Origin: a virus
Taxonomy: Duplodnaviria; Caudoviricetes
Virus record (IMG/VR): IMGVR_UViG_3300004281_000002
Coordinates: 1 to 60,999 of that record
Strand: one strand, 5' to 3'
DNA length: 60,999 nt
This document shows positions 3,654 through 20,594 of the stretch, in pieces; the first letter of the stretch is position 1; each line of letters opens with the position of its first letter. A model generated the notes under the pieces. That model searched no databases and was not told the DNA's origin. It saw nothing but the letters and a program-made list of their open reading frames with translations. The position numbers and the translations under genes were made by a program.

Positions 3654-3655
3654 GG

Positions 3656-4907: not shown

Positions 4908-5000
4908 AGGTCCTCCTTGCGTATTAGAAGCCCGTACAGCCCTGCCCTGGCCGAGGGTGTGGTCGCACCCTTGCCCGGCCAGGAACCGGGCTCTACCGGG

Positions 5001-5645
5001 CTATACCGAGGTTTCCGTCCCGTTGGACTGGTCGGCCTCGGGCTTCTCGACCTCGACCAGATGCACATGCGCCTGCACCTGAGCCGCGGTCTCCTGTGCC
5101 TTCACCTTCGCGTCCACCGCCGCCGTCACCTGATCGTGCAGGCTGTTGCCCGCTCCCGTCTTGGGACGCCCGAACCGCGAGCCCAGCTGGAACGGCGCAA
5201 TGTACGCGTTGAATTCCTCCTTGGCCTTCGCCGCGACTGCCTCTGCCTGACGCACAGTCGCGCCCAAGCGCTCAACCTCCGTCGTCTCGTCCTCGGTGAG
5301 CGGACGCAGAGCATCATGGTAATGCGACAGCTCACACTTCTCGGTCGGATTCTCCAGCGTGACCAGGAGCGTATGGTTCTTCGCATGAATCCCGCGGGCG
5401 ATACCCTTGCGCGGACGGTAGTTGGTCACCTGCGTGAACGGAATGGCGACCTTCGCCGCCTGCTCCGCCACCTTCCGCTTCAACCCAGCAATCGCGGCCT
5501 CGTACGTGGCACCGTGCGCGATCGTGGTAGTATACGTCAGGGCATCACTCGGGCGATGCGTGTAGAAAGTGCCGTTGCTGGAGCACGACACGACGTACAT
5601 CTGTCCACGTACCTGCGTGCTACCGATCTTCGTAAAATCTGCCAT
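5001..5645 (-). CDS. Hypothetical protein (214 aa, start MADFTK)
   Basis: ACGCAAGGAGG RBS before ATG 5645. Confidence 0.8.
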   Translation of the reverse strand: MADFTKIGSTQVRGQMYVVSCSSNGTFYTHRPSDALTYTTTIAHGATYEAAIAGLKRKVAEQAAKVAIPFTQVTNYRPRKGIARGIHAKNHTLLVTLENPTEKCELSHYHDALRPLTEDETTEVERLGATVRQAEAVAAKAKEEFNAYIAPFQLGSRFGRPKTGAGNSLHDQVTAAVDAKVKAQETAAQVQAHVHLVEVEKPEADQSNGTETSV

Positions 5646-5666
5646 ATGTCCTCCTTGCGTGTGATA

Positions 5667-5706
5667 TGAAAACGAACGCGGCGGGAGACCCATTCCCCCG
5701 CCGCGT
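5667..5706 (-). terminator. Terminator/attenuator-like hairpin
   Basis: ACGCGGCGGG / CCCGCCGCGT stem (5676-5706) followed on the minus strand by TCGTTTTC. Confidence 0.6.
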
Positions 5707-5757
5707 CCCCTGGCCGCAGACGTGTCGTACCCCGATTTGGCGCCTGCGACCAAGCCC

Positions 5758-5871
5758 TCATGCGGATTGCTTCTGCACTGCGCGCCAACAGCGGAAGCAC
5801 AGCCACTGCGCCAGCACGACATGCCAGCGCACGCTGTCGCTGCTGGGGCACAGATCACAGCTGCGTGCCAT
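5758..5871 (-). CDS. 37-aa zinc-finger-like peptide
   Basis: MARSCDLC...WLCFRCW (two CxxC). Confidence 0.55.
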   Translation of the reverse strand: MARSCDLCPSSDSVRWHVVLAQWLCFRCWRAVQKQSA

Positions 5872-5873
5872 GA

Positions 5874-7031
5874 CTACGCCGCCAGCTGCATCAGCTTGCC
5901 GGACCGGCGCTCCAGGTCCACGCGGGTATCTATCCACGCATAATCTCGTGCGCTCGCCGTCAAGCCCTGCATCAGCGTCCACAGGTTGACGACCTCGCCG
6001 CCCTCCTCGCGCTCCGCGTACGCGATGCCCTGCCTGATCTCGCTCGCCGTGAAGCCGTGCTTCTTGCCGAACTCGATCAGCTTGTCCCGGTCAGGCGCCC
6101 CAGGAATCTCGAACGCCTTGGCCTTCTTGATCTTCGCTTCGAGCGGCGCTGCCGGCGCGTTCACGTACGACTTGAGCGTCGGCCCGGCCTCCGCGATGAA
6201 GCGCTCCGGAGCGTTCAGGCTGTGCCGGATGCGCAGCTCGCAGAGCTGCTCCGCGCCCCAAATTTGGTGATTCCCGCACACGCCCCGGAAAAGGAATGTG
6301 GCGAGTCCAAACGTCGCCGCGCCGACCTCACTGTTCCACGCGTAGAAGCCGCGGTGCAGCTGGTCGCGCTCACTGCCGCCATCCACGATCGAGCCGCCGT
6401 CCACAAAGAACATGAACACGTCCCGGTCCGACGCGTACAGACCGCCACGCTTATGCGTGCCGTCCTTGTGCGTGTCCCACACGAGCGGATTCTCGAACTT
6501 GCCGCCCGTCGCATCCACGATGCGCTCCACGAGGTCCACCACATCGATGTCCCAAATCCGCCCGTAGCTGGCGCTCGTGGCCGCGCGCAGCTCGTACGTG
6601 TCGTCGTCCTCCGCGCCCTCCACATCCGGGACCGGCCACGCCAGCAGCCGCGCGTCCGTGCCGTCCTCGGACGCCTGCTTGGCGAAGCCCTCCTGCAAGC
6701 ACGTCACCGCGGTCGGCATGCTCAGCTCGCGGAGATACGTCGCAGGGGCGTGCGCCCGCTGGCACATCTGGCCAAATGACCAGTGCGTCGGCAGGAAGTT
6801 GAAGGGCGAGTTGGGCGCCCCGAAAAAGATGCCCGGCTTGCCCTCGGTCTGTCCCGGCTTGACGTAGTTGGCGGTCTCCACCGTCAGCTTATCGAGCGGC
6901 ACGTCGAACACGCGCGCGGTGCTACGGCGGCTGTCCACCTTCGCCTTCAAGGCAGCCAGGTTCTCGAACCGCTGGTCGCGTGGCCGCGCGTAATACTGGC
7001 GGTTCGGTTCCACAATCGAAACTTCGCTCAT
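5874..7031 (-). CDS. DUF932-family protein (385 aa)
   Basis: THWSFGQ, SYGRIWD, LYASDRDVFMFFVD, RGFYAWNSEVG, VCGNHQIWG, IRH are DUF932 motifs of mobile elements; ACGCAAGGAG RBS at ATG 7031. Confidence 0.85.
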   Translation of the reverse strand: MSEVSIVEPNRQYYARPRDQRFENLAALKAKVDSRRSTARVFDVPLDKLTVETANYVKPGQTEGKPGIFFGAPNSPFNFLPTHWSFGQMCQRAHAPATYLRELSMPTAVTCLQEGFAKQASEDGTDARLLAWPVPDVEGAEDDDTYELRAATSASYGRIWDIDVVDLVERIVDATGGKFENPLVWDTHKDGTHKRGGLYASDRDVFMFFVDGGSIVDGGSERDQLHRGFYAWNSEVGAATFGLATFLFRGVCGNHQIWGAEQLCELRIRHSLNAPERFIAEAGPTLKSYVNAPAAPLEAKIKKAKAFEIPGAPDRDKLIEFGKKHGFTASEIRQGIAYAEREEGGEVVNLWTLMQGLTASARDYAWIDTRVDLERRSGKLMQLAA

Positions 7032-7228
7032 TGGTCGTCTCCTTGCGTCGGGCTGGGAGGCAATGTCGGCACGGCCCGTTCGTTGCCGATTTCCAAGTCT
7101 AACACAGTCCATTCTCCTGTGAGCGGTGGGCTGCCCTCGCACGTGCACAGCGCATCGTACGGGACAGTCCCACCGTCGTCGGACAGTAGCCGCCCACAGT
7201 GGGCGCAGCTACTCGTTGTCGTCTCCAT
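7028..7228 (-). CDS. Small protein with CxxC (66 aa)
   Basis: CAHCG...CTC; ATGA overlap with the DUF932 start. Confidence 0.5.
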   Translation of the reverse strand: METTTSSCAHCGRLLSDDGGTVPYDALCTCEGSPPLTGEWTVLDLEIGNERAVPTLPPSPTQGDDQ

Positions 7229-8129
7229 CGCTCTCGACCTCGGCCATCTGCACCTGCGTGCCACGCGCTACGTGGAAACGCTGCTCCCAGCTCTTGAGCG
7301 TGCTGCCAATCTGCCGGAGCGAGTCGCGCATCGTGCGCAGTGCCGTCTCGACCAACTGCATCGAGACATCGCCGTCCTGGTACCCTTCGAGCAGCTTCCG
7401 CAGCATGGCACCATTGTGCTGCGACAGCGACCGGAAGCGCGCCCGGATCACGCGCTGGGCCTCGGCGCCCTTCTGGTGCTTCTTCTTCCGCCGACCACCC
7501 ATTTCCTTCCGCAGCTGCTCCTCGTCCACATCGTAGCGCGCTGCCGCCTGCGGAATGTTCAAGCTGCCATCCGTGATCGCTTCCATCGCTTGCTTCAGCC
7601 GCGCGCGGAGCCGTTGCATCTGGATCGTCCTGATGTACTTCTTCGCGAGCGACTGCGGAATGGGCAGAATCTCCGCGATTTTGCCGTAGGGCACCTTCTC
7701 CGCGAGCAGCAGCCGAATCGAGTGCTCGATGTCGTCCCGCGTGGGAGGCTTCGGACCACCCGCGTTCGCTTTGAACGCGAGAGCGATCTCCTGCACAGTG
7801 TCACGGGCCGGCGGCACGACCTTCGCCCGCACAGTCTTCCGATCGAGCAGCGCGCCTGCATCCACGCGATGCCGCCCGTCACGCACGATGCATCCGCTGC
7901 CGTCCTCGTTCGGGTACACCGTGATGGGGTCCAGCTCGACCCCGCCGTCGATCAGCTCGGCCAGCATCAAGGTGTGATCCTGGTCGGGCTTCTCACGCAC
8001 GTAGACAGAGACGTGGAGGTCCGACAGCGGGACTTCCACGGTCTGCCCGATCTTGCCCCAATAGCCGGCCCTCGCGATTACCGGCTTTGGAGCGGCAAGC
8101 AATGCCGCTCGCCGTTTCTCGTTCGCCAT
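7209..8129 (-). CDS. ParB/Srx N-terminal-domain protein with HTH-like C-terminal region
   Basis: LDPITV...IVRDGRHRVDA ParB motif; later NIPQAAARYDVD HTH-like segment; first gene behind a consensus sigma70 promoter. Confidence 0.8.
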   Translation of the reverse strand: MANEKRRAALLAAPKPVIARAGYWGKIGQTVEVPLSDLHVSVYVREKPDQDHTLMLAELIDGGVELDPITVYPNEDGSGCIVRDGRHRVDAGALLDRKTVRAKVVPPARDTVQEIALAFKANAGGPKPPTRDDIEHSIRLLLAEKVPYGKIAEILPIPQSLAKKYIRTIQMQRLRARLKQAMEAITDGSLNIPQAAARYDVDEEQLRKEMGGRRKKKHQKGAEAQRVIRARFRSLSQHNGAMLRKLLEGYQDGDVSMQLVETALRTMRDSLRQIGSTLKSWEQRFHVARGTQVQMAEVESDGDDNE

Positions 8130-8181
8130 AGGTCGTATCCTCCTTGCTAGTTTGCGGTCGCCTTGCTACGACCACGGCTGG

Positions 8182-8210
8182 AAATTAGCACAGCGGCTTT
8201 TCGATGTCAA
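8182..8210 (-). promoter_or_regulatory. Sigma70-type promoter TTGACA-17-TAATTT with TG extension
   Basis: Perfect -35 (8205-8210), 17-nt spacer, TGc-TAATTT (-10 at 8182-8187), AT-rich upstream tract; drives the early operon. Confidence 0.85.
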
Positions 8211-8273
8211 GACTATTTTTTGCCAATAGCAGAATAATCCGAATCACCGAGACAGTCTTGTCGGGTGCCACAA

Positions 8274-8837
8274 TTATTGGGCAGTTATTACCTGCCGGTT
8301 CCAAAATGCTTCTGGCGAGACTTGCATATCCCATACAGCGTCCGCGTACGTCGCTAGGAGCCGCAGGCGCAGCGCGCCGTGTCCGGTGGCTTTCCCACAC
8401 GGCGGTACCTCGTAGCACCCGCGTGGTGGCGTCTCCCGCAGAACAGTGGCTGCTGTCGCAAGCGCCACGAGATGCCCGATCGCAAATGAGGGGCGCTGCG
8501 TCAGACGCAGGGCTCGCCGCCACTTCGACCGTAGCACAGTGCCCGTAACTCCGAGTTTAATCGCACAGAGATAGTCAGCCAGCGCCCAGCTCAGGACAGG
8601 CAGGCGCCCAAATCCTCCACACGACGGACAGGCCCAGGCCCGGTCGCGCGGCACGAAGCGATAGGCCCACTTCCCACAGTAGGAACACGGCATCATCAAC
8701 TTCCCCTGCATCCTACATGCCGTGGGGAACCACCCCTTTGCCGCGTCGCGGATGCGGGCCATGTATTCGGCCCGTTCCCTCCGAGATTCACACTGCTTTA
8801 TTGCCTCCGTGTGCACTCGGGTGAGCGCCTGAACCAT
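8274..8837 (-). CDS. Hypothetical zinc-ribbon protein
   Basis: CSYCG...CPSCGG; start uncertain. Confidence 0.45.
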   Translation of the reverse strand: MVQALTRVHTEAIKQCESRRERAEYMARIRDAAKGWFPTACRMQGKLMMPCSYCGKWAYRFVPRDRAWACPSCGGFGRLPVLSWALADYLCAIKLGVTGTVLRSKWRRALRLTQRPSFAIGHLVALATAATVLRETPPRGCYEVPPCGKATGHGALRLRLLATYADAVWDMQVSPEAFWNRQVITAQ

Positions 8838-9000
8838 CGCCCGGTATGCCAGCGCCACATGCCAGACAGTCGGGACCGTCGCCGGCCATTCGACCCGGGC
8901 ACGGGCGAGCGCCAATGGGAGCCGGCGCAGCCCCCGGTGATCCGACCAGTGCCGACAGGACCGGCAGCGCTGAATGCGCCCGTCCTGGATAGCGCCGTCG

Positions 9001-9031
9001 AGAATGAGAAGGTGCCGCCCCGAGCGGCACC
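9001..9031 (-). terminator. Intrinsic terminator candidate
   Basis: GGTGCCGC / GCGGCACC stem (9011-9031) followed on the minus strand by TTCTCATTCT. Confidence 0.55.
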
Positions 9032-9042
9032 AGACCGCTTGC

Positions 9043-9192
9043 CTAGCGCGAGGTCGCGACGTGCAGCACTTCGGCCAGGGCAATGAAGAACGCCCCGAGC
9101 CAACCAATCTGTACCCGCGGTGCCGGGACGCCAGCCGTGGCGAGCGCGAAGCAAATCAACGCGACGAGCCAACACAGGAAGTCAATGCCCAT
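9043..9192 (-). CDS. 49-aa two-TM membrane protein, absent from the ORF track
   Basis: Hand translation MGIDFLCWLVALICFALATAGVPAPRVQIGWLGAFFIALAEVLHVATSR; TGATG coupling. Confidence 0.75.
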   Translation of the reverse strand: MGIDFLCWLVALICFALATAGVPAPRVQIGWLGAFFIALAEVLHVATSR

Positions 9193-9584
9193 CAGGCACC
9201 CTCTGGTTTGTAGTCCGCGAGCAGCCCTTCGCCCTCGTCCGAGGCGGGAACATTGGTCACCCCGCGGTGCAGCTGAACCAGGACCTTCGGCCCCAAAGCG
9301 AGCGCGATGCGGTCTCGCACCCCCGGCGGGGTATCGGGGTCAGTCAGTCGCCGGGCCAAGTAGCCAAGTGCCATCACCCCCACGTCGGCCAGAGCAACTG
9401 CCAGGTTGGTCTCCTTCGGCAGCTCTTCGAGCGGCTGGTTCTTATAGCGTAGCCACCAGTAGCCCAGGCGCTCGACCTCGGCGTCAGTAGGGATCGGTGA
9501 GCCATTCTGGACCCGACCTACGACCATGAGTGATCGCTTGGAGGAGCGACCAGAACCGCGCGAGCCCTTCTTCGTTCCACCCAT
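9192..9584 (-). CDS. Hypothetical helical protein
   Basis: Plausible composition; tight packing; start uncertain. Confidence 0.6.
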   Translation of the reverse strand: MGGTKKGSRGSGRSSKRSLMVVGRVQNGSPIPTDAEVERLGYWWLRYKNQPLEELPKETNLAVALADVGVMALGYLARRLTDPDTPPGVRDRIALALGPKVLVQLHRGVTNVPASDEGEGLLADYKPEGA

Positions 9585-9900
9585 TACGGCTCCAGGTGCG
9601 GCCACAGGCGACGCCCGCAAGTACCGCAGCGTGAATCGCCCAGGCGCGCTGAATCTTCTCGTGACAGGTCGCGCAGACCGTCACGAGGTTCTCGGGCCAG
9701 TCCCTTCCACTGCGCGAGCGCGGAATCACGTGGTGCACGGTCAGCTGCCGCAGGGAGCGGCACACCACACAGCGCCAGGAGTCGCGCTCGCAGATGTCGG
9801 TACGGAGCAGCCCCCAGGCTACTCGCGATCCTGTTCGACGTACCCGACGCGCGGCCCGGACCAGAGCCGCGTCTGCTGGCGCTGTTGGCGGCGTTCCCAT
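9484..9900 (-). CDS. HNH endonuclease
   Basis: ERDSWRCVVC...LTVHHVIPRSRSGRDWPENLVTVCATCH is a canonical HNH signature; start uncertain. Confidence 0.85.
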   Translation of the reverse strand: MGTPPTAPADAALVRAARRVRRTGSRVAWGLLRTDICERDSWRCVVCRSLRQLTVHHVIPRSRSGRDWPENLVTVCATCHEKIQRAWAIHAAVLAGVACGRTWSRNGWNEEGLARFWSLLQAITHGRRSGPEWLTDPY

Positions 9901-10130
9901 CGCTTGCGTTGAGCCACGACATCGAGCACGTCTACCACGTAGGCGCCGGGGAAGACGGACTTGGCGAGGATCACGTCCTGCCAGACCTGGAGCGGCACCC
10001 ACTTCCGAGAGAGTAGCGGAATCTCGGTCACATGGAAGGCCGGCAGCCACGGGGCCAACCCCGGCGGATAGGGCGTGTCGTAGAGACAGAGCAGCCCTAG
10101 GCCGGGGCTATCGACCCAGCGGATCATCAT
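9819..10130 (-). CDS. Hypothetical protein (103 aa)
   Basis: ATGA overlap with the upstream gene. Confidence 0.6.
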   Translation of the reverse strand: MMIRWVDSPGLGLLCLYDTPYPPGLAPWLPAFHVTEIPLLSRKWVPLQVWQDVILAKSVFPGAYVVDVLDVVAQRKRWERRQQRQQTRLWSGPRVGYVEQDRE

Positions 10131-10450
10131 GCCGCTTTGGCGTTGGCTGGGGCCTTGCTGCGGGCGCGATGGCGGCGCCGCCTACGCTTAGTCGAGGCGA
10201 CCGCAGCAACGCCGCTCGACTTGGGCGGACGCCCGCGCCGCACGACGTGGACCTCCTCGTACTGCGAGCGGAACTCGGTGTCACTTACGGTCTCCTGCGT
10301 GCCATCGGGGTGCGTGAGCAGCCAATCCCCCACGGTCACATGCTGCACTTCCGTGGGGTCGGCTATCTCGTCAGAGGACCCCGAGATCGTCAGCGGTCTC
10401 GTGAATTGGATCGCGTCGACTTCCCGAATCTTGGTCCGAAATCTCGGCAT
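10127..10450 (-). CDS. PGDYG-like small protein with AT-hook-like basic tail
   Basis: EVDAIQFT...VGDWLL...F...YE, then RRGRPPK and RRRRRHR. Confidence 0.7.
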   Translation of the reverse strand: MPRFRTKIREVDAIQFTRPLTISGSSDEIADPTEVQHVTVGDWLLTHPDGTQETVSDTEFRSQYEEVHVVRRGRPPKSSGVAAVASTKRRRRRHRARSKAPANAKAA

Positions 10451-10694
10451 GAGTGTTTCCCTTCTGCTCTGCGGGCGTCGTCCACCCGAGCGTGAGCTGT
10501 GCTGCTTCGATGGTAATGACGACTATCTGCTCTTTTTGCAATAGGGCGAGCGCCTGTGTGCCCTCCGCGTCCACCATGTCGCCCTCGCACTGAAGCTGGA
10601 GGGTGGAATGGACCTCACCGCGATCGTTGAATTTCTGCGTCATTGTCGCCCGCTTGATCGCTGCCCGCCAGGTCAGCTTCGCCTCGTTCGCCAT
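10371..10694 (-). CDS. Hypothetical protein
   Basis: GGGAGG RBS; the C-terminal part overlaps the next gene. Confidence 0.65.
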   Translation of the reverse strand: MANEAKLTWRAAIKRATMTQKFNDRGEVHSTLQLQCEGDMVDAEGTQALALLQKEQIVVITIEAAQLTLGWTTPAEQKGNTHAEISDQDSGSRRDPIHETADDLGVL

Positions 10695-10757
10695 GCCTTC
10701 TGCCTCCCGCGATATGCACGTTGCCGTTCCCGTGCCCGCCGTTTCAGAAACTGCTCC

Positions 10758-11084
10758 TCAGTCTCGCCTCGCAAGAGCACCCCGCACCGTGGACACTTCG
10801 GTCCCGTCCGCTCCTTGACCGCTTTCGGCATCAGTCGTCGGTGTGCTCCACGTCCCCAGGAATTCCTGGCTCACTGCCGTGATCCGCGCCCCCAGCCGGG
10901 GCGAGCCCGTCACCCGGGCTGCCACTTCCAACGCTTCGCTCAGGATGTCCAGCACCCCCGCCGGGAGTGCCATCTGCACCACGAACACGGTCGTCTCCCC
11001 CGTCCCCTGCCGCGCTACCACCCGCATGCCCTTCGGGAGCGGACAACAGAGCGACAGCGGGCGGTCCAGAGTCGGGGCTGCCAT
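10758..11084 (-). CDS. Hypothetical protein (108 aa, MAAPTLDR...)
   Basis: GAGGAGG RBS; overlaps the low-complexity tail of the helicase ORF. Confidence 0.6.
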   Translation of the reverse strand: MAAPTLDRPLSLCCPLPKGMRVVARQGTGETTVFVVQMALPAGVLDILSEALEVAARVTGSPRLGARITAVSQEFLGTWSTPTTDAESGQGADGTEVSTVRGALARRD

Positions 11085-12957
11085 CGTCACCCTCCTCGTA
11101 CTCCAGCTCGGCCACCGGAATGATGTGCCGCTGGTTGGTCGCTTCGAGCGTCTCCAATGCGTATCGTGACACGTCGTGGGCTTCTGGATCACCCGACAGC
11201 GCAAGCACGAGCGCGTCACGCGCCCGGCTGACTGCCACGTAATACAGCCGCCGCTCCTCGCCCTCAGGCTCGCCCCGATGGTGCGGCAGGATGTCCTCCT
11301 CCAAACCGACCAAGAGCACGATCGGCCATTCCAAACCCTTCGCCCGGTGGATGGTGCTCAGCGTGATCGAACCAGCCGCAGTCTCCACCCGCTTCGGATG
11401 GCGCCGGCACTGATCCACGAACGCCACGAATTCCCCGAGCGTGCGCGTGCCCGCGCCTTCCACAAGGCTATCCAGATTCTCGTCCACGTCATTGTCTTCC
11501 GACTCCTCCTGCTCCGCGAGCCCGTCCTTGTGCACCCAATTCCGGTAGCCGACCGGGCCATTGAGCACGTAGTGCAGGATGCCCGCAGCCCGCGTGTCGT
11601 GACTGTAGCGTCGAAGCTGACAGCAGATCGACCACAGCTCGTCCGCCCGCTCACTCATGTAGCGCTGCGACCAGCGGAACGCGCTCGGCCCGCTCGTCTC
11701 CCACTTCGGCCAACCGCCCTGCGCCTGTAATGAATCCAGCCAGACACGTCCTAAGTAACGGGAGGGCCGGTTGTAGATGCGTTCGAGGGATGCCAGCCGA
11801 TCGAGCCCCGCAGCGTACTCCAGGTACGCCATCACGTCCTTGATCTCCGCCCGGTCGTAAAATGAGAAGCCCCCCGCCACCACGTAGGGCACACCGAGCC
11901 CGACGCAGACCGCCTCGCACTCGCCTAGCACAGCATGCGTGCGGCCAAGCACCACCACATCGGTCGGCGGCACCTTGGCCGCCATCAGCAGCCCGAGCGA
12001 CCGCTCGAACGAATGCCGGAGTAACCGTTCCCAGGTGCCACCCACCACGATCGGCAGAATCGGTGTGCCTTCCTCACGCGCCTGCGAGACGTTCACGTGT
12101 TCCTTCTTCCCGTGCAGCACGCGGTTCGCCGTCGTGATGATCTGCCCGCGGCTACGGTAGTTCCGGCTGATCGTGTAGGTGGCAAACGGCGCTTGATCGA
12201 AGCGAGTTTCGAGGGATTCGAGCATGCCGTCCTGCGTGGCTCCACGCCACGTGTAAATCGACTGCCCCGGATCACCCACGATGTAGAGCTGCGTGCTCGC
12301 TCCCACCAGATGTTCGAGGAGGTCCCACTGACACGTGCTCGTATCCTGGGCCTCGTCCACGATCAGGTGCGCGTAGCGCCGGAGCCACTTCTGGTGACGC
12401 CCCGGATCGCTCGCAAGCAGCGCCGTGGGCTGAAGCACGAGGTCGTCAAAGTCCCACAGGCCCTCGTCGTCGTGCAGGATGCGCTCGTACTCGTAGCCGA
12501 CTTCCGCGATGTTCGCCGGATACGCTACCCCGAACGCACGGGCACGGCCGATCTTTGCCTTCACGTACGTGAGTGAGTCGCGGCACCCGGTTGCCTTGAT
12601 CGCACGCAACACCAAGGTGCCCCGCTTGCGGTCGTCCGCGATCGGACGGCCCATGCGCTCGAATTGGAGTATCCGGTAGCCGAGCGAGTGGATGGTACCG
12701 ATCTGCGCGTCGATCGCGGTCGTGCCTACGCGCCGTTTAATCTCCTCCGCGGCGCGCTTGGAGAACGTGACCACGCAGAGGTCACGGGGCGGTACGCCCT
12801 GTGCCTGCACGAGATAACGCACCCGAGCCGCGAGGCACGTCGTCTTGCCCGTACCCGCACCGGCCCGCACACGCACGAAGCGCTCGGGGGCCATCGCGGC
12901 AGCCCGCTGCTCATCGTCGAGTCGAAGATCACTGGTACCGGACATCGGACGCTCCAT
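10831..12957 (-). CDS. UvrD/PcrA-like SF1 DNA helicase
   Basis: AGAGTGKT (Walker A), VTFS, IVDEAQD, VGDPGQSIYTWRGA, NYRS, STIHRAKGLEW, EERRLYYVAVSRAR. Confidence 0.97.
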   Translation of the reverse strand: MERPMSGTSDLRLDDEQRAAAMAPERFVRVRAGAGTGKTTCLAARVRYLVQAQGVPPRDLCVVTFSKRAAEEIKRRVGTTAIDAQIGTIHSLGYRILQFERMGRPIADDRKRGTLVLRAIKATGCRDSLTYVKAKIGRARAFGVAYPANIAEVGYEYERILHDDEGLWDFDDLVLQPTALLASDPGRHQKWLRRYAHLIVDEAQDTSTCQWDLLEHLVGASTQLYIVGDPGQSIYTWRGATQDGMLESLETRFDQAPFATYTISRNYRSRGQIITTANRVLHGKKEHVNVSQAREEGTPILPIVVGGTWERLLRHSFERSLGLLMAAKVPPTDVVVLGRTHAVLGECEAVCVGLGVPYVVAGGFSFYDRAEIKDVMAYLEYAAGLDRLASLERIYNRPSRYLGRVWLDSLQAQGGWPKWETSGPSAFRWSQRYMSERADELWSICCQLRRYSHDTRAAGILHYVLNGPVGYRNWVHKDGLAEQEESEDNDVDENLDSLVEGAGTRTLGEFVAFVDQCRRHPKRVETAAGSITLSTIHRAKGLEWPIVLLVGLEEDILPHHRGEPEGEERRLYYVAVSRARDALVLALSGDPEAHDVSRYALETLEATNQRHIIPVAELEYEEGDDGSPDSGPPAVALLSAPEGHAGGSAAGDGGDDRVRGADGTPGGGAGHPERSVGSGSPGDGLAPAGGADHGSEPGIPGDVEHTDD

Positions 12958-13156
12958 CCGGATCGGACTCCGGGGTTTCTGCGTGCACCCGCGCCAGATA
13001 CTCCTCGGCACTGTTCAGGTGCGTGAGCGCCAGCTGCAACGCCGCGCTCGCTTCGGTCCGGTACGTCCGGGCCTTCGTGTACTCCAGGACTGCCAGACAC
13101 AGGAACGCCGCTGCCGTCGACACGCACAGCGACGCCAGTGCATACACGGTTGCCAT
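12929..13156 (-). CDS. Small N-terminally membrane-anchored protein (75 aa)
   Basis: Hydrophobic N-terminus; GCAAGGAGG RBS. Confidence 0.7.
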   Translation of the reverse strand: MATVYALASLCVSTAAAFLCLAVLEYTKARTYRTEASAALQLALTHLNSAEEYLARVHAETPESDPDGASDVRYQ

Positions 13157-13180
13157 AGTGTTCCTCCTTGCTGCCCAGCC

Positions 13181-14794
13181 CTACGCCGGGCCACCCGCCG
13201 CTGCCGCCATCGTGCGTTCGAGCATCACGCCAAACACCTGGGGGTCGGTAATCACCGAGCGCGCCTGAGCCAACAGCTGACGCAACTCGGGCATCGGAAT
13301 CTGCTCGATCATGTCCACGCCACGGGACTTCGTGAGCAGTAGGATCACCTTGTCCTTCAGGTGTGTCGTCGCGGTCTCTGTCAGCACCGCGTTCAGTAAC
13401 TGCTCCTGCTCCGACCCCGAGGTCAAGGCCGGCTCAGCCGCCTGCGACTCCAACAGGAGAATCAGCTCCGCCCCCTCTGCCTCGTTCATGTACCGCAATT
13501 CGACCGGCTGATTCGACGCGAGCCACGGACGCTGCCGAGCTTCGAGCCACTTGCGCGCGAGGCCCTTCAGCTCCTGGAAGTTGGGCTGTCCTGCCCGGTC
13601 GGTCGTGAGATCACCGAGCCGCTTCAGCTGCGGCTTCGTGATCCCCGCCGTCTTCACCACCGTCACCTTGCCGTCCGGTCCCAGGTGCTCGAAGTAGTGC
13701 ACCATCGCCGGAGGTCCTGCCGGCGGGAGTGGCGTCACCGCAGCCGGCGGCTCGGCTGAAATCGGAGAACTCGGCGCTGACTGGTCCAGCCCGTTACCCT
13801 CGGACGCCGCGTCCGCACCCTTTGCGGTAGGCTCGGACGCCGGCTCCTCCTCAGGCTCGACCTCAGGCTCGGCTTCCGGCTCGACTTCACCAGGCGGCTC
13901 AGGAGCCTCGGGCGCGGGCTGGTCAGGCTCCTGGGCCTCGGGCGGCGGCTGGAGGTCTCTCAAGGCGTCTGCGGGCGCCGCAGGCGGTGGCGTGACCGGT
14001 GGCGTGACCGGTGGCATATCCACCGGATGCTCCTCTACGTGGGTCTCGCCTCGGACCTCGCCTGGCGCATAGGCCCCGAGGATCACGTCGGGGAAGACGG
14101 CGCGCACAGCCTCGGTCGAGCACCGGGCGAGCAACATAGCCCGCGGGTACTTCCGCCAGCTCTCGTCGATCAGCCCAGCCCGCTGAGCATCCGCCAGCGT
14201 ATAGCGGTGCTCCCCCAGATAATCGGGCCGGTCCCCGTCCCCGTAGCGAATCGCCTGAAGCACACACTCCTCGTTCGAGAGTGTCTTCGGCACCAGCAGC
14301 CCGCGCCCGGAGCGCCCGACCAACGCCCGGCACAGCTCGGCCTGCATTTCGATCTTCCCCTCGGGCGTCCAGTACAATCCCTGGACCGACTCCGTGGGAC
14401 CGATCCCCAACTCCATCCCGCGCACCAGCAGGATCGTCAGCTGCACTTCCGTGAGATCACGTCCGAGCCCACCCACCTTAAAGAGCCGGGCCATGTCCTG
14501 GAGGTTGCTCATCATCTGGACTGCCCGTTCGATCGTCGGCTGTGACGGGCGCTTCGCCGCGCGCACGCGCGCCATCTTCGCCTTCGCTTCCTTCGTCCCC
14601 GCGTGCTGCGAGGGGTCCTCACCCGGTGCCGTCACCAGGGTCTGTTGCTTTGGTCGTCGTGGCATTTTCGGTTTCTTCTCCTTCCGCCGGCTCATGTCCC
14701 GGCACGCCTTGCACTCCACCCGCCCGGTCGGACGCGTGTACGTGCCCACCCGCTCCAAATCGTGGCCTCGGCTACAAACAGTGTGTACATCCAT
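13181..14794 (-). CDS. RecT/Red-beta-like ssDNA annealing protein with N-terminal Zn ribbon and Pro/Glu-rich linker
   Basis: GMELGIGP...YTLADAQRAGL...WRKYPRAMLLARC...FPDVILGAY. N-terminal CSRGH...CKAC. Start MDVHT is coupled (TAATG) to the exonuclease stop. Confidence 0.8.
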   Translation of the reverse strand: MDVHTVCSRGHDLERVGTYTRPTGRVECKACRDMSRRKEKKPKMPRRPKQQTLVTAPGEDPSQHAGTKEAKAKMARVRAAKRPSQPTIERAVQMMSNLQDMARLFKVGGLGRDLTEVQLTILLVRGMELGIGPTESVQGLYWTPEGKIEMQAELCRALVGRSGRGLLVPKTLSNEECVLQAIRYGDGDRPDYLGEHRYTLADAQRAGLIDESWRKYPRAMLLARCSTEAVRAVFPDVILGAYAPGEVRGETHVEEHPVDMPPVTPPVTPPPAAPADALRDLQPPPEAQEPDQPAPEAPEPPGEVEPEAEPEVEPEEEPASEPTAKGADAASEGNGLDQSAPSSPISAEPPAAVTPLPPAGPPAMVHYFEHLGPDGKVTVVKTAGITKPQLKRLGDLTTDRAGQPNFQELKGLARKWLEARQRPWLASNQPVELRYMNEAEGAELILLLESQAAEPALTSGSEQEQLLNAVLTETATTHLKDKVILLLTKSRGVDMIEQIPMPELRQLLAQARSVITDPQVFGVMLERTMAAAAGGPA

Positions 14795-15678
14795 TAGTCG
14801 TCCCATCCCGTGAAGAGATCGATCAGCTTGGGGTCTACCCGCGTGAGCCGCTGGTCCCGCTCGGTGGACGCCGCCGCGTAGCAGAGCGGCACCATCTCGC
14901 ACGTGCCCATCCGAAAACACGCCCGCGGGTTCTGCCAGAACTGCCCCTGCTTGATCGCTTTGTCGATCGCGATGGCCGACGCGAGAAACTGATCCGTCAC
15001 GTGCTCCGGACGGCGCGGCACGAGCAGCCACTGAATGCGCGGATTCGACCCCCGGATCATGCGGCACAGCCCGAGCTGCGCTACCACGCGTCCGTGGGCT
15101 TCCTGGGCCAGCTGGTAGCCCGTCAGCTGCGGGTCCAGCTCCACGGACAGGGGCGGGATGTCCCGGTCCCCCGTCTTGAAGTCGAGCACGGTGGGCAGGT
15201 AGTCGCTAAAGAGGTCCTGGCGCACGTGGCAGTAGAGATCGGGAATCGACAGCTCCTCCACCTGGGGTGCCAAGAAGAACCGGATGTCCTCCTGCGTGAA
15301 CATCTGCCCCGGCTCCGGCACCAGGATGCGCTCCCGAATCTCGGGCACAATCACCTTCGCGAGCGCCGTGCCCTGCTCCCCGAGCGCCTCGAACGTCACC
15401 CGCGTCGACCACTCGATCGTGGTCGGGTCAAGCCAGTACCAGGCGCCTTGGAACAGACGCACGGCTTCGGCGGAGTCCGTGACCAGCCCCGCCGCGATGC
15501 ACGTGGCGAGGTTCTCGAAGATGCGTCCGAACACCCACTGTCCCTTGTCGTACTTCGGGCGCCAGCCTTGCAGGTAGTGCAGCAGCCATTTGTAGGGACA
15601 CGTCATGTACGTGTCCCGCTGCGAACAGCTGCGCCGGAAATCGTAGTTCGGTTCGTTAAGAAACGCGCTTGCCATCAT
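14794..15678 (-). CDS. PD-(D/E)XK exonuclease (RecB/AddB/Cas4-like, 4-Cys)
   Basis: CPYKW, IPDL, VLDFKTG, QLTGY and C-terminal C-x5-C-x5-C; adjacent to the RecT-like gene. Confidence 0.85.
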   Translation of the reverse strand: MMASAFLNEPNYDFRRSCSQRDTYMTCPYKWLLHYLQGWRPKYDKGQWVFGRIFENLATCIAAGLVTDSAEAVRLFQGAWYWLDPTTIEWSTRVTFEALGEQGTALAKVIVPEIRERILVPEPGQMFTQEDIRFFLAPQVEELSIPDLYCHVRQDLFSDYLPTVLDFKTGDRDIPPLSVELDPQLTGYQLAQEAHGRVVAQLGLCRMIRGSNPRIQWLLVPRRPEHVTDQFLASAIAIDKAIKQGQFWQNPRACFRMGTCEMVPLCYAAASTERDQRLTRVDPKLIDLFTGWDD

Positions 15679-16171
15679 GGTCCCAATCCTCCTTGCGTCC
15701 GTAGTCTGCGATCAGGAGCGCTTCCGCGGCGCCCTCCTGCGACGCCTTGAGTGCTCCCACCTTGGGCCAGCGCTCCTGCACCATCAGGCGCGAGGCCCGC
15801 TTGTCCTGCTTGAGTAACCCCTGTGCCCGCTTCCACACCACCGGGTAGACCCAGCGGATGGGCAGGTTCATCCCGACCAGCATGCCGTGCCACAGCCCGA
15901 CGCCGTATCCCGTCTTGTAGACCGCCATCGCATGCTGCCCTGGTCGCGTGCCCCCGCGCTCGATCCAGACGGCACGGACTCCCTGTGCCTTCCAGGTGGC
16001 GAGGTAGGTCCAGGCCACGGCGAGATCGTATTCGTGCTGCTGCCGCTTGCCGTTCTGCACCACCGTGGCCGGCATGGTGCACAGCTCGATCCAGTCGGGG
16101 TCGCTCACACTGAGCACGCCAAATCCCCCCGAAATCCCTGGATCGATTCCGATGATTAAATCCTTCGGCAT
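15656..16171 (-). CDS. RuvC-like Holliday junction resolvase
   Basis: IIGIDPGISGG, VWIE, PVVWKR, AEALLIA. Confidence 0.9.
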   Translation of the reverse strand: MPKDLIIGIDPGISGGFGVLSVSDPDWIELCTMPATVVQNGKRQQHEYDLAVAWTYLATWKAQGVRAVWIERGGTRPGQHAMAVYKTGYGVGLWHGMLVGMNLPIRWVYPVVWKRAQGLLKQDKRASRLMVQERWPKVGALKASQEGAAEALLIADYGRKEDWDHDGKRVS

Positions 16172-16181
16172 TTATGGTGGA

Positions 16182-16211
16182 GTTTTATCACAAATGCCGG
16201 GGGAATTTCAA
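16182..16211 (-). promoter_or_regulatory. Sigma70-like promoter for the recombination operon (TTGAAA-18-TAAAAC)
   Basis: TTGAAA (16206-16211) and TGaTAAAAC (-10 at 16182-16187), just downstream of the terminator and ~10 nt before the RuvC-like ATG. Confidence 0.55.
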
Positions 16212-16217
16212 TGCCCC

Positions 16218-16253
16218 ACAAAAAGAAGGGGCCAGCCCGACCAGGCTGGCCCC
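16218..16253 (-). terminator. Intrinsic terminator (3' end of the candidate sRNA)
   Basis: GGGGCCAGCC / GGCTGGCCCC 10-bp stem (16228-16253) followed by TTCTTTTTGT on the minus strand. Confidence 0.85.
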
Positions 16254-16315
16254 ACGCAAGGAGACCTCGGGTATCACCCCGAGCACGGATCGACCTATGG
16301 CGAAGCGGACCCGTT
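16218..16315 (-). ncRNA. Candidate trans-acting antisense sRNA (anti-RBS / anti-start-codon)
   Basis: Three hairpins. The first hairpin presents UUCGCCAUAGGUC(G) and the linker GUCUCCUUGCGU is single-stranded. Both are complementary to translation-initiation regions of phage early/middle genes. Confidence 0.65.
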
Positions 16316-16348
16316 ACCCCTCCTCATACCACAGATCGAAGGTCGGGG

Positions 16349-16621
16349 CTAGGGCTTCCCCCGCCAGGGGTTTACTTCGTCCCACGGGGCATCGGGGGCG
16401 GGGGAACGGCGGGGGGCGGGGCGCCGGGGTCGTTGCTGGGGGTATTGGGCACGAAGCCAGCGGTGTTCGAGCCGACGCCGCCAGCCCTTGGGTGGCGGCC
16501 AGGACACACCCCACTCGGCCAGCAAGGCTCGGGAGAAGCCCGAGTTGGCGGTGCTCCGAGCCTTGATCTCCTCGGGGCTCACCAGTGGCAGTCCCCGTTT
16601 CGTACGGAGCCGGGGTTCCAT
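16349..16621 (-). CDS. Small conserved phage protein (WGVSWPPPKGW motif)
   Basis: EEIKARSTANSGFSRALLAEWGVSWPPPKGWRRRL; GAGG RBS. Confidence 0.75.
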   Translation of the reverse strand: MEPRLRTKRGLPLVSPEEIKARSTANSGFSRALLAEWGVSWPPPKGWRRRLEHRWLRAQYPQQRPRRPAPRRSPAPDAPWDEVNPWRGKP

Positions 16622-16624
16622 GCC

Positions 16625-17311
16625 TCATGCCCTATACGCCTGTGCCTGTGTTGCCGACAAGAGCATCTCTGTGTGCCCGTTCCGCTGCCGGGTCAGCCAA
16701 TGCCCCAGGCAGCCCCGGCGCACCCGGCGCCAGCGGCGGGGGAGGGGAGCCGTAAGCATGCTCGTACGCTCGATCGTAGTCATGCTGGTCATGCTCAGAT
16801 CGACTCGATCGACTCTATCGACTCTATCGACTCTATCGACCGTAAGAGTAGAACGCTGAGACGCTCGTGTGTCCGTGCCCTCCGGGCACTTGGTATCGCA
16901 AGATTCCAGGGCGATCTTGCGATACGGTCCATCGATCTTGCCATACGGTCCAGGCAGGTACCAGTGCTCCACGCCGAACTGCCCGGACTTGTTGTAGTAT
17001 TCCCGGCGCTCCCAGCCGGTGCCAGCGTAGAGCACGCGGCGTTTCAGCCGGGGAGCGTAGGTACTGATCGACCCTCGTGGCAGCCGGATCACGTAAACCG
17101 GCTTTACCCCACGCTGCCAGGTGTAACGCCCGACCTCGATCCGGTGCTCCTGCCTGAGCCGCTGGATCGCCCACTGCACCGTGCGCTCCGGCATCCCGAG
17201 CGTGGCGCCGATCTGCCCACTCGCCAGGGAGATCGCCGTGCCGTCCTGCTCCCGGATGCGCTCAGCCAGGTACGCCAGCACCGCCTCCGCCGCCTTCGAC
17301 TGCTTGACCAT
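16625..17311 (-). CDS. Putative replication initiator (N-terminal winged HTH; internal DNA repeats)
   Basis: SLASGQIGATLGMPERTVQWAIQRLRQEHRIEV wHTH; GGGAGAGG RBS at ATG 17311; tandem and direct repeats in the 3' half, as in lambda O-type genes. Confidence 0.65.
   Translation of the reverse strand: MVKQSKAAEAVLAYLAERIREQDGTAISLASGQIGATLGMPERTVQWAIQRLRQEHRIEVGRYTWQRGVKPVYVIRLPRGSISTYAPRLKRRVLYAGTGWERREYYNKSGQFGVEHWYLPGPYGKIDGPYRKIALESCDTKCPEGTDTRASQRSTLTVDRVDRVDRVDRVDLSMTSMTTIERTSMLTAPLPRRWRRVRRGCLGHWLTRQRNGHTEMLLSATQAQAYRA
16799..16840. repeat. 9-bp tandem repeat ATCGACTCT x ~4.7
   Basis: atcgactcg atcgactct atcgactct atcgactct atcgac; encodes (VDR)n. Confidence 0.95.
16893..16952. repeat. 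Iteron-like repeats ATCTTGCSATAC (two direct, 21-bp period; one inverted)
   Basis: CGATCTTGCGATACGGTCCA (16912-16931), CGATCTTGCCATACGGTCCA (16933-16952), and an inverted GTATCGCAAGAT (16893-16904). Confidence 0.85.
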
Positions 17312-17450: not shown

Positions 17451-17611
17451 AGCTCATGAACGCTCCATAGCAGAATTACGTGCTCTTGACGAATCCCGTG
17501 GTAGTTGGCACAGGGAATCTCGGGGCACCCGCGGTCCACACCCGCGCCGGGAGCTGCCAGCCTAGTAGGGGCTAGGCAGCTCCCACCCACCGCGTGCTAC
17601 AAGGGTTTTCC

Positions 17612-17905
17612 ATGCCACGGGCAGAAGGCGTGCGCTGCCGCAACTGCGGCGTGCACATCCTCTGGGGCCGGCACCGCGACGCCGATCGCTGGGTCTCGCT
17701 CGAACCGCACCTGGATGGTACCTGGGTCCGCGACGAGCACAAGGTCTGCTGGAAGATCGGCGTGGACGAGCAGACCACGCTGCCGCGCTACGTCCCGCAT
17801 ATGTTCCTCTGCGCCAAGCACAAGAAGGCCGCGAACGCCGACGAGCGGAAGCCCGTGAAGCCGCGAGCAATGCAGCTCGATCTCGCGTTGCCGACGAAGC
17901 GCTAG
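17612..17905 (+). CDS. Small Zn-finger protein (97 aa), possibly near-leaderless
   Basis: CRNCGVHILW...YVPHMFLC pattern typical of phage Zn-ribbon proteins; TGcTACAAG just upstream. Confidence 0.75.
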   Translation: MPRAEGVRCRNCGVHILWGRHRDADRWVSLEPHLDGTWVRDEHKVCWKIGVDEQTTLPRYVPHMFLCAKHKKAANADERKPVKPRAMQLDLALPTKR

Positions 17906-18820: not shown

Positions 18821-19078
18821 TCAGCCACTGCCCTTGGGCCGGGCCAGTTCGTCCGCGGTCCCAGCCTCTAGCCGTTCGATGAACTCGCGCAGCATCTTCA
18901 CCATGTCGGCCCGGTCGGCGTTGCTGATCCACGTGGCCTCGGGTCCCTGGAACGCAAAGATCAGCAGGGCAAAGCCGAAGCCACCCTTCTCACGGCATAC
19001 GCTGCCGATGATCGAGCCGATCTCTCGCGCCATCCTGTCCATCGTCGCCAGAAGAGCGTCGTCGAGCTGCTCACGCAT
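18821..19078 (-). CDS. Conserved small phage protein (85 aa)
   Basis: GFGFALLIF...WISNADRADMVKMLREF; GAGGAG RBS. Confidence 0.8.
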   Translation of the reverse strand: MREQLDDALLATMDRMAREIGSIIGSVCREKGGFGFALLIFAFQGPEATWISNADRADMVKMLREFIERLEAGTADELARPKGSG

Positions 19079-20594
19079 CCGTCTCCTCCTCGCGGAGCGC
19101 AGCGGCTTTGAGCGGCCAGGTCCACTGCACCACGCGTTGATGGTTCCCACACGCCACCCGCCCGAATCGGGCACCAAGCCTAGATAGCTCCTGGTGGTAG
19201 CGATCGTCCAGATGGTTCGTCTCCGTGATATGGGCTAGCTCGTGAATGAGCACCCGGTGCAGCTCGTCTTGGTGGTGCCACTGGAGCCGCCCGAGGTTCA
19301 GCACGAGCACGGCATCTTCGCCGCACGCGGCGATCACCGTCCACGCCCGGTCCCGAAAGCACTTGACCGTCACGTGCCGATCGACCAGCTCGTTGGCGAG
19401 CCACGTGGCGTACTCAATCAGCACCTGCTCCTCGGGCGAGAGCTGATCCTGTGTCAGTTCGTTAAGCTGTTTGCCCTCTCCCGGTATCGTACTGATGGCG
19501 GTCGGCGTGCCGGTCACCTTGCCAGCGGGCAGGAGCACCGTCGTCTTGCGCACGTTCTCCCACTCGCCCTTGGACATGGAGCCGCCGTGCACGACGGTGT
19601 ACCCTTCGGCCATCGCCCGCATGCTGGCCTCCGGGTCCGAGGGATCGTAGGCCACCGAGCGCTCCCCGAAGCGCAGCTTCGCCAGGTGCTTGGTGGCGTA
19701 CTCGTGGCACTCGGGGTCCGCCGCCGCCTGCCGCACCCACGGCTCCGTCGCCTGCTCCACGGTGGTGAGCTGCTCGTACAGGTGGTTCAGGAGCACGACC
19801 CCCAGCTTTCGAAGGAAGCTCGGGGTGACGTTCTCGCGGTCGAGCGTGAGTGGGACTTTCTGCGCCACGTCCACGTGCCACGGGAAGCTGGTCGCGCAGA
19901 CCGGAATGCCCATTTCGTAGAGCCACGCCCCGGTCAGCTGCTCGTAGCAGAGCACGCTCGCCTTGCGCACTGTGGCGTGGAGCAACCCATCCCCCTTGTC
20001 AACTTCGGTTGGCAGCGACACGCTGTCTGCCCCCCCGATCAGGCGGGGGCGATTGATCGGTTCTTCCGCGCCTTGGATGGTCAGCGTGGTCGGAATGGCG
20101 GGCGGGGGAATCAGGTGCCGGGCGGCCTCGACCAGCTGAGTCGTGACTGCCTTGGTCGCCATCAGGCGAAGGTTGACCTCGGTGCCCAGCGTGGTCCGCC
20201 GGTTGCCGTTGTACTCACGCGTGCCGTTAGGCCGGAAGTAGATCGTGCCCGCCACGGTCGTCACGCGAGCCGAGTTGGCACACGAGATCGCCAGCTTCTC
20301 GCCCAGGTTGAAGCGTCCGCGCTTGGTCACGTCGCTCTTCTTCTCGGAGGGCGCGAAGAGCGTGTAGAGATCGGACAGCTCCTTCACGCCCGCGAAGGCG
20401 TTGTCCGTGACGGTCAGTTCGAGCATGCCTTTGTCGTCCACGATCGTGATGCTCACGTGCTTCACCCCAGGAGCATCCCACGCGTTCTGCACCAGCTCGT
20501 GCACGATGAAGCCGTAGCCCCGGCGTGCGAGCAGCTGGCGCAGTCCGTTGGGATCGATCGTGAACCACTGCGCGGCCTTGTGTTTGACTGCCAT
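19071..20594 (-). CDS. GHKL (HATPase_c) ATPase fused to a C-terminal HExxH zincin-like domain
   Basis: ELVQNAWDA (N box), TDNAFAG, RGRFNLGEK (G boxes); C-terminal LIHELAH...H. Confidence 0.85.
   Translation of the reverse strand: MAVKHKAAQWFTIDPNGLRQLLARRGYGFIVHELVQNAWDAPGVKHVSITIVDDKGMLELTVTDNAFAGVKELSDLYTLFAPSEKKSDVTKRGRFNLGEKLAISCANSARVTTVAGTIYFRPNGTREYNGNRRTTLGTEVNLRLMATKAVTTQLVEAARHLIPPPAIPTTLTIQGAEEPINRPRLIGGADSVSLPTEVDKGDGLLHATVRKASVLCYEQLTGAWLYEMGIPVCATSFPWHVDVAQKVPLTLDRENVTPSFLRKLGVVLLNHLYEQLTTVEQATEPWVRQAAADPECHEYATKHLAKLRFGERSVAYDPSDPEASMRAMAEGYTVVHGGSMSKGEWENVRKTTVLLPAGKVTGTPTAISTIPGEGKQLNELTQDQLSPEEQVLIEYATWLANELVDRHVTVKCFRDRAWTVIAACGEDAVLVLNLGRLQWHHQDELHRVLIHELAHITETNHLDDRYHQELSRLGARFGRVACGNHQRVVQWTWPLKAAALREEETDA

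Follow-up and report, generated by a model that had tools for sequence, protein, structure and literature searches.

We analyzed the complete IMG/VR virus record IMGVR_UViG_3300004281_000002 (hereafter the window; 60,999 bp, completeness estimate 97%, G+C content ∼65%), which comes from an uncultured soil phage, and found an element directly upstream of its gene for a RuvC-like Holliday junction resolvase that is, with high confidence, a functional RNA. On balance, we lean towards reading it as a new trans-acting small RNA (sRNA) directed against translation start sites and repressing several genes of the phage itself. In the reverse complement, the two blocks of the element that are invariant among its relatives read GCAAGGAGA ... 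CUAUGGCG, that is, a Shine-Dalgarno (SD) sequence, a start codon, and an alanine codon. The element is best read as a new variant of the anti-SD base-pairing sRNA, unusual in that it is phage-borne, has two seeds, and is aimed at a start-associated motif system.

Anatomy of the element

The minus strand carries nearly all plausible genes of this 61-kb phage and thus serves as the sense strand. The element fills the intergenic gap from P0002 to the gene of RuvC, both of them on this strand, and is therefore antisense to nothing; the label "antisense", given to it in an initial annotation of the window, does not apply. The positions proposed there for the promoter box, the hairpins, the loop, and the linker were all confirmed on the sequence (Table 1). 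The terminator is the strong GC stem with a U tract that had been described, but it has 11 pairs, nine of them G-C, rather than 10, and in a terminator scan it ranks among the top two within the first 20 kb. Folded from the predicted start, the 99-nt RNA forms exactly three hairpins with GGUCUCCUUGCGU unpaired, which reproduces the proposed structure with its single-stranded linker. The fold energy is −49.4 kcal/mol (z −3.6), and none of 200 shuffles folds as well.

Promoter and terminator predict an RNA of ∼97 nt in the window and ∼75–100 nt in relatives. As far as sequence can tell, the element thus has the form of the sRNA class, a promoter and a Rho-independent terminator bounding 50–300 nt. 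Two other pairings were considered and rejected. The GAGGAGG/UCUCCUU closing stem of the first fold is absent from relatives and lies upstream of the predicted start. A helix of the −10 box with CGCCAUAG, suggested by RNAalifold, fits L019 and L016 and not L017 (3 of 9 positions) or the window (6 of 9); it was rejected because of this poor fit and because the box matches a promoter class of the phage. It is possible that such a helix would mask the loop in read-through transcripts.

Conservation among relatives

Relatives were collected with a RuvC alignment, which yielded 33 metagenome loci. In the four closest ones (L016–L019), RuvC is 51–57% identical to that of the window, and the same promoter-hairpin-linker-terminator unit lies directly upstream of its gene. 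The alignment of the five sequences (the window, L016, L017, L018, and L019; four distinct) contains only two invariant blocks, CGCCATAG and TCTCCTTGC, which are runs of 8 and 9. None of 100,000 column permutations reproduced both runs among the 101 ungapped columns, and identity elsewhere in the alignment and in the flanking DNA is 36–59%. A TGnTAnnnN box is found 19–21 nt 5' of CGCCATAG at all five loci, the −10 hexamers of the relatives being TACGGT, TACACT, and TATGGT. In all four relatives the linker is followed by a G+C-rich stem, and in three of them by a T run, which is absent in L019. Hairpin 2 lies within an insertion of ∼21–22 nt private to the window, where all four relatives have gaps.

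The gene upstream of the unit is P0002-like in the window, L016, and L018, while other genes take this place in L017 and L019; RuvC is always downstream. Because the upstream neighbor varies, the unit seems to travel with RuvC and is not simply the 3' untranslated region or tail of one gene. At the more distant RuvC loci L020–L030, genes overlap at that place and the element is absent. Gene starts with the motif GCAAGGAG (see below) number 10 in 20.2 kb of the four sRNA-bearing loci versus 3 in 63.8 kb of eleven RuvC loci without the sRNA, and all four relatives with such starts keep the reverse copy of the motif, which bears on a question raised by the initial annotation, namely whether the motif occurs in relatives on its own.

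Further searches added no members. A distant blastn search with positions 15600–17000 against the phage collection had no match, nor had a search of viral contigs with protein P0001, and the RuvC alignment retrieved from viral contigs only relatives at most 32% identical. A RuvC homologue, P0007, is encoded on a contig of 63 kb. Scans of viral and genome contigs for the two-block pattern gave chance matches, mostly ordinary gene starts in reverse among the matches listed. Stricter block patterns gave 4 and 3 chance matches of low G+C content and no further members, the window's own record being possibly masked. Copies of CTCCTTGC in L024, L026, L039, and at position 37151 of the window lie within coding sequence and are not homologues.

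Secondary structure and strand

The first block tops a hairpin in every lineage, with the loop CGCCAU in three of them and a slightly larger one in L017. Counted over the five pairs beneath the loop, pairing is seen in 18 of 20 cells, compared to 30–55% in slid controls. Three of these five pairs are compensatory, both sides having changed, and the covariation score of the apical stem was reached by 4 of 500 shuffles; with four sequences, the support from covariation is modest. Six of the paired cells are G-U and would become A-C mismatches on the plus strand. They fit only a minus-strand RNA and therefore agree with the direction of the promoter box and the U tract. In all five RNAs, the predicted probability of being unpaired is 0.90–0.99 for the loop and 0.74–0.97 for the linker, the means over whole RNAs being 0.35–0.44. 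Hence, the conserved accessible seed typical of the sRNA class is present as two invariant blocks predicted to be unpaired.

Could the blocks instead belong to a small gene on the plus strand, as its real ribosome-binding site (RBS) and start codon? Such a gene might encode a type I toxin that the minus-strand RNA silences. In the relatives, the plus strand indeed reads GCAAGGAGA-N10-11-ATGGCG, a spacing within the range of this phage's genes, and open reading frames (ORFs) of 44–89 aa follow the ATG. However, the five ORFs (89, 80, 49, 80, and 44 aa) have only Met-Ala in common, their pairwise local alignment scores of 17–32 are as low as those of unrelated frames, and they run antisense through the conserved minus-strand gene P0002 (homologue elsewhere). 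In the window, moreover, GGAG and ATG are 31 nt apart on this strand, and no plus-strand promoter was seen. Plus-strand translation had been named in the initial annotation as an alternative; because the ORFs are not conserved and because G-U pairs, promoter, and terminator all point to the minus strand, we give it little weight and consider it highly improbable.

Complementary sites at gene starts

The 12-mer ACGCAAGGAGAC occurs in the window 17 times with up to two mismatches (11 copies on the minus strand, 6 on the plus strand), versus 6.25 expected, and none of 100 shuffles reaches 17. The only perfect copy on the plus strand is at 16254–16265, and the only one on the minus strand is at 7037–7048, at the DUF932-like gene. 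The initial annotation had noticed no second copy in the opposite orientation, which holds for perfect copies; the 9-nt core, however, is found once more in that orientation, within coding sequence at 37144–37152.

The motif GCAAGGAG has 14 sites on the sense strand, of which 12 stand just before start codons, 11 of them within 493–15696 and one at 20608. It precedes no start codon in the structural half of the genome (21–61 kb). Accordingly, it is found at 11 of ∼27 starts downstream of the element versus 1 of ∼50 elsewhere (Fisher p 1.8e-5). That the linker is the reverse complement of a motif at twelve gene starts, with 12 of 12 nt at the DUF932-like gene and 11 nt at gene 57–476, was thus borne out, as was the complementarity of the loop to the starts of the genes beginning at 8129 (14 nt) and 4907 (13 nt). 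The remaining start matches are of 9–10 nt at eight other genes, and most of the twelve starts match over 8–10 nt. Of exact complements of at least 9 nt to the 63-nt body of the sRNA, the sense strand has 38 and the control strand 22; what the sense strand has in excess maps only to sRNA nucleotides 13–26 and 52–63, where every site is a start region. GC extends the motif 5' of AAGGAG and is common to the phage starts and to the RNA in all lineages. Presumably, this GC is outside the usual pairing with the 16S 3' end, judging by typical 16S ends.

To the single GCAAGGAG start site upstream of the sRNA belongs the minus-strand gene 19071–20594, which encodes a 507-aa protein with a weak match, below the cut-off, to GHKL-type ATPases (HATPase_c).

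The sRNA was cofolded with 77 start regions, 27 downstream of the element and 50 from the rest of the genome. Seven downstream genes rank on top, the best being 8129 with a gain of −32.8 kcal/mol; the medians are −12.7 kcal/mol downstream and −8.5 kcal/mol in the rest (Mann-Whitney p 0.0037). None of 30 sRNAs with shuffled bodies reaches the real minimum or the real difference of medians. The predicted duplexes are two-part, the linker pairing with positions from about −20 to −6 of the target and the loop side of hairpin 1 with −6 to +8, and hairpin 2 is retained in them. In a duplex scan with the linker only, targets could not be separated from the G+C-rich background.

Proposed mode of action and alternatives

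We propose that the element would be transcribed independently as a phage sRNA from its own extended −10 promoter to its own terminator, and would expose two sequences: the hexaloop CGCCAU, complementary to AUG and the alanine codon GCG, and the single-stranded UCUCCUUGC, complementary to the extended SD sequence GCAAGGAGA. It would pair in trans with initiation regions of phage mRNAs carrying GCAAGGAG(A/G)-N5-14-AUGGC(G/A), and such pairing, covering both RBS and start codon, would lower translation. The best-matched sites belong to the exonuclease gene just after RuvC and to the ParB-like, 56-aa, and DUF932-like genes; weaker targeting would be expected at the other GCAAGGAG starts. The element's first downstream gene, that of RuvC, would escape. 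At all five loci, this gene has its own TGnTAnnnN box 8–13 nt 5' of the start codon and no SD sequence, and from this promoter geometry we infer that it is the near-leaderless first gene of the recombination operon, out of reach for an anti-SD RNA. The number of genes controlled is likewise an estimate from complementarity, and silencing of all twelve is conjectural.

Several points weigh against this proposal. Only four distinct sequences are available; soil metagenomes are the source of all of them, and a single campaign probably yielded some. Transcription of the element is a prediction from its sequence. The extended −10 box predicted in the initial annotation is indeed present at all five loci, but in the window its hexamer TATGAG lacks the usual final T, which the relatives have. 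The list of starts comes from a crude purpose-made ORF caller with edits by hand (16628, 16117, 15601, 15350, and 5068 dropped; 16621, 16171, 15678, 13156, and 4907, as well as 3888, added). Two of the 30 shuffled sRNAs give at least the real count (6) of starts at −19 kcal/mol or lower, and energy-based prediction separates only a handful of targets (8129, 7031, 15678, and 4907). The complementarity is partly generic, because CUCCUU complements any strong SD sequence and AUGGC is a common start; among the matches listed from public collections, both blocks match hundreds of ordinary gene starts in reverse. Finally, at the exonuclease start the base 5' of GCAAGGAG is C in the window, where the sRNA has G, and U in L016, L017, and L019, where it has A, the kind of joint change that the initial annotation had suggested looking for. 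Still, each sRNA forms 10, 10, 8, 13, and 10 Watson-Crick pairs with its own exonuclease start (mean 10.2), compared to a cross-locus mean of 9.0, and intermolecular covariation is weak. The original idea of a master sRNA for a whole regulon is supported in part: comparison with relatives speaks for a real, selected minus-strand small RNA unit with invariant blocks that are predicted to be unpaired and match gene starts, while predicted energies pick few targets.

In a narrower explanation, the RNA, or its sequence as part of transcripts reading through from the upstream operon, would control only the adjacent recombination operon via pairing at the exonuclease start ∼560–620 nt downstream, the likeness of the other ten starts being a by-product of a strong start-site consensus that they share. 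Among the targets, only the exonuclease start allows a check at all five loci, where 9–17 contiguous positions pair with the locus's own sRNA; the sRNA-RuvC-exonuclease adjacency is kept while the upstream gene varies; and complementarity at most of the twelve starts is as short as 8–10 nt. Yet the longest matches in the window are at distant genes, namely 8129 (14 nt), 4907 (13 + 10 nt), and 7031 (12 nt), and the strong terminator together with the separate RuvC promoter argues for separate transcripts. We consider control of the adjacent operon only to be unlikely.

The element might, in addition, act where two operons meet as a structured terminator or insulator, its conserved blocks serving something other than mRNA pairing, such as protein binding (host or phage) or RNA stability. 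Its exact position at an operon border and the rank of its terminator would suit such a role, but termination does not require an invariant hexaloop or an invariant unpaired 9-mer, each block is a start-site complement predicted to be accessible, and a conserved promoter box stands 5' of the unit, which makes an insulator improbable. As both blocks match generic bacterial start regions in many genomes, the targets could also be host mRNAs with strong AAGGAG sites and AUGGCG starts, which would then be translated less, the matching starts of the phage being incidental or tolerated. The GC that the phage starts and the RNA have in common in all lineages speaks against host targeting, which we regard as quite improbable.

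If the trans-acting sRNA proposed here is real, phage gene expression would have a new level of temporal control, exerted by a phage RNA that reads a shared motif at start sites. The dual seed, with a loop for the start codon and a single strand for the SD sequence, would also be a simple natural design for orthogonal translational repressors.

Comparison with known RNAs and regulators

No Rfam family reached its gathering score anywhere in the window. With E-values up to 10 allowed, the matches on positions 16100–16450 were limited to mir-5429 and suhB/mmgR, both weak and rejected, and did not include C4 or IsrK, the families that the initial annotation had named for comparison. For mmgR/suhB (RF00519), a family of anti-SD sRNAs in alpha-proteobacteria, membership was rejected, as the match reaches 13.9 bits (E 2.4) where the gathering score is 41 and its alignment comprises only a CCU-rich stretch and the terminator. 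Still, sRNAs of this type resemble the phage element in that they have several mRNA targets and, immediately before a Rho-independent terminator, a pyrimidine-rich anti-SD stretch that is unpaired; RoxS/RsaE are further multi-target sRNAs with anti-SD seeds. The phage element differs in being phage-encoded, in having a second seed for the start codon, and in that its candidate targets are the phage's own genes.

T4 RegA is a translational repressor and RegB an endoribonuclease cutting within GGAG, and the initiation regions of many early mRNAs are shut down together. Like these, the element would be a phage factor reading many early mRNA initiation regions, the difference being that RegA and RegB are proteins and the element would be a base-pairing RNA.

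The c4 RNA of P1 and P7 is cut out of the own transcript of the icd-ant operon. The likeness of the element to the immunity RNAs of P1 and P4 is loose, because neither of the two integrase families searched for, tyrosine integrase (PF00589) and serine recombinase (PF00239), was found in the phage. Like c4, it is a phage-encoded structured small RNA whose exposed sequences would pair around the RBS of a target and block translation; c4 pairs around the RBS of one mRNA through loop sequences (PMC12197685). Unlike c4, which serves lysogenic immunity and acts on one operon (icd-ant), the phage element has its own promoter and terminator, many candidate targets, and no Rfam match. The sar RNA of P22 is also a small phage RNA occluding an RBS (PMC12197685), but it is a true cis-antisense transcript of one gene (ant), while no gene lies opposite the phage element. 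In the available portions of the sources, phage-encoded sRNAs with identified targets are few and act on one gene or on host genes (PMC12197685, PMC4933390), and the sRNAs of PAK_P3 have no start-site targets (PMC4933390). In the literature on phage sRNAs acting on start regions of early genes, we found nothing comparable, most subscription journals being outside the search.

Start-associated sequences of Cluster K phages

The closest parallel, suggestive and not established, is with the start-associated sequences (SAS) of Cluster K mycobacteriophages. SAS is a 13-nt asymmetric motif with an SD core that reaches beyond the pairing with 16S (Pope et al., 2011, PMC3203893). It occurs in 11–19 copies, 3–7 nt before start codons, in one orientation and in the non-structural arm only, and whether RNA or a protein binds it was left open (PMC3203893). 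Its role is still called unknown in papers of 2024 and 2025, which do not mention a small RNA in their available text (PMC11373665, PMC12699233). The motif of the phage studied here is similarly asymmetric, has an SD core, stands in one orientation before start codons, and is confined to the non-structural arm. However, the consensus differs (GGGATAGGAGCCC in SAS, GCAAGGAG here), and the phages are unrelated, so that this phage is an analogue and not a member; its capsid protein is ∼25% identical to those of Arthrobacter and Microbacterium phages. Unlike in Cluster K, its reverse copy lies in a compact promoter-to-terminator unit with a second seed against the start codon.

Adephagia (L291) has 16 forward copies of SAS and one reverse copy, situated in the 432 bp that separate gene 92 from gene 93 (L291 46600–46740, record 58599–58739). 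On the sense strand, the reverse copy forms the 10-nt apical loop CCUCCUAUCC of a long hairpin that is adjoined by a second one; the region has a z of −6.6, and none of 200 shuffles folds as well. According to the 2024 paper, late transcription appears to begin in the interval from gene 92 to gene 93, and the hairpin may therefore lie in the late leader. The hairpin region is present in 137 phage records. Nine representatives were aligned: five of them have an anti-SAS loop (Adephagia, CrimD, Anaya, Peanam, and Amelie), Ekdilam and DarthP have one that is anti-SAS only in part, and the loops of ShedlockHolmes and SirPhilip are unrelated. The only genome scanned outside K1 was that of Ekdilam, which has 17 forward copies of the same SAS. 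The parallel is thus real for K1-type phages and not general across the subclusters of Cluster K.

A far-reaching version of our proposal, which we hold to be possible and rather doubtful, would make the element an RNA-only counterpart of T4 RegA/RegB. It would copy the two surfaces with which the initiating ribosome reads mRNA, the anti-SD sequence of the 16S RNA and the CAU anticodon, occlude start-associated sequences, and shut the replication and recombination arm as a block with the leaderless RuvC escaping; the SAS of actinobacteriophages would be sRNA operators and the lone reverse copy of K1 phages their regulator. If the proposed sRNA is real, it would offer a concrete, testable reason for which an extended non-ribosomal motif is kept by some phages before a subset of early genes, a question raised for SAS in 2011 and still open in the parts available of the papers of 2024–2025.

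Genome setting and other features

Contigs from four DNA sequencing runs are identical to the window, and among the runs listed as containing the phage none is recorded as RNA. In the direction of transcription, the element is followed by genes for an exonuclease, a RecT-like protein, a helicase, an HNH endonuclease, and ParB-like and DUF932-like proteins, and because of this gene content it can be said to head the replication and recombination arm. A search of the window for tRNA and tmRNA was negative. Coordinates are collected in Table 1.

Table 1. Features of the element, of the gene starts complementary to it, and of its surroundings, in positions of the window
Feature	Position	Strand	Details
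Extended −10-like box TGTGGTATGAG, hexamer TATGAG	16323–16333	−	From sequence; predicted start ∼16314–16316
Hairpin 1	16285–16314	−	Fold; stem ACGGGUC/GAUCCGU (16314–16308 / 16291–16285), 16-nt loop 16307–16292
Apical hexaloop CGCCAU, complement of AUGGCG	16302–16297	−	Within invariant block CGCCAUAG, 16302–16295
Hairpin 2, CUCGGG-GUGAUA-CCCGAG	16266–16283	−	Fold; inside the window-only insertion
Anti-SD linker GUCUCCUUGCGU, single-stranded	16254–16265	−	Holds invariant block UCUCCUUGC, 16264–16256
Intrinsic terminator	16218–16253	−	Terminator scan; 11-bp stem (9 G-C) 16253–16228, then U tract TTCTTTTT
P0002, 90-aa gene	16349–16621	−	Flanks the element upstream
RuvC-like Holliday junction resolvase	15656–16171	−	phrog_1770, E 1e-27; flanks the element downstream
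RuvC unit	16169–16211	−	TTGAAA 16211–16206, TGTGATAAAAC 16192–16182, start ATG 16171; no SD sequence, predicted leader of few nt
Exonuclease start ACGCAAGGAG...AUGAUGGCA	15676–15698	−	phrog_1218, phrog_69; 10 Watson-Crick pairs with linker; in all five loci
Start of ParB-like gene 7209–8129, GCAAGGAG + CGACCUAUGGCGAA	8122–8147	−	phrog_1033; 14 nt complementary to hairpin 1 loop
Start of 56-aa gene 4737–4907, ACGCAAGGAG directly followed by GACCUAUGGCGAA	4900–4922	−	10 + 13 nt complementary to linker + loop
Start of DUF932-like gene 5874–7031, ACGCAAGGAGAC	7029–7048	−	12 of 12 nt with linker
Start of gene 57–476, CGCAAGGAGAC	484–494	−	11 nt
Other GCAAGGAG start sites	Begin at 20608, 13171, 5658, 3903, 3212, 2326, 1255	−	From sequence
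TGTGnTAnnnT boxes	2389–2399, 3939–3949, 7096–7106, 8182–8192, 8528–8538	−	Upstream of early genes

The box class TGTGNTANNNT (TGTGnTAnnnT) has five copies versus 1.27 expected, all of them on the sense strand in gaps of the early arm between 2389 and 8538. Judging by this placement, the five boxes are probably early promoters of the phage; the one at 8182–8192 has TTGACA further upstream. The early arm probably has its last terminator at its extreme end, at 5–34 (minus strand), where a T run follows a G+C-rich hairpin.

P0002 has no match among Pfam or PHROG families. A search with it found one distant locus, L002 (3001–3174, in a viral contig), without the element; the two proteins have the motif WGV(S/P)WPPPKGW in common and are 45% identical over 60 aa. 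In the minus-strand gene 16625–17311, the translation VDRVDRVDRVDRVD at ∼16790–16840 comes from a 9-nt unit in ∼4 in-frame repeats. A candidate plus-strand gene of 103 aa lies at 17594–17905, amid an otherwise one-directional genome, and has low G+C content at the second codon position; its product has a weak match to DUF6083 / zinc-ribbon, below the cut-off. Inside it, a stretch of 40 nt (17748–17787) has ∼85% matches in many short metagenome contigs at raised depth.

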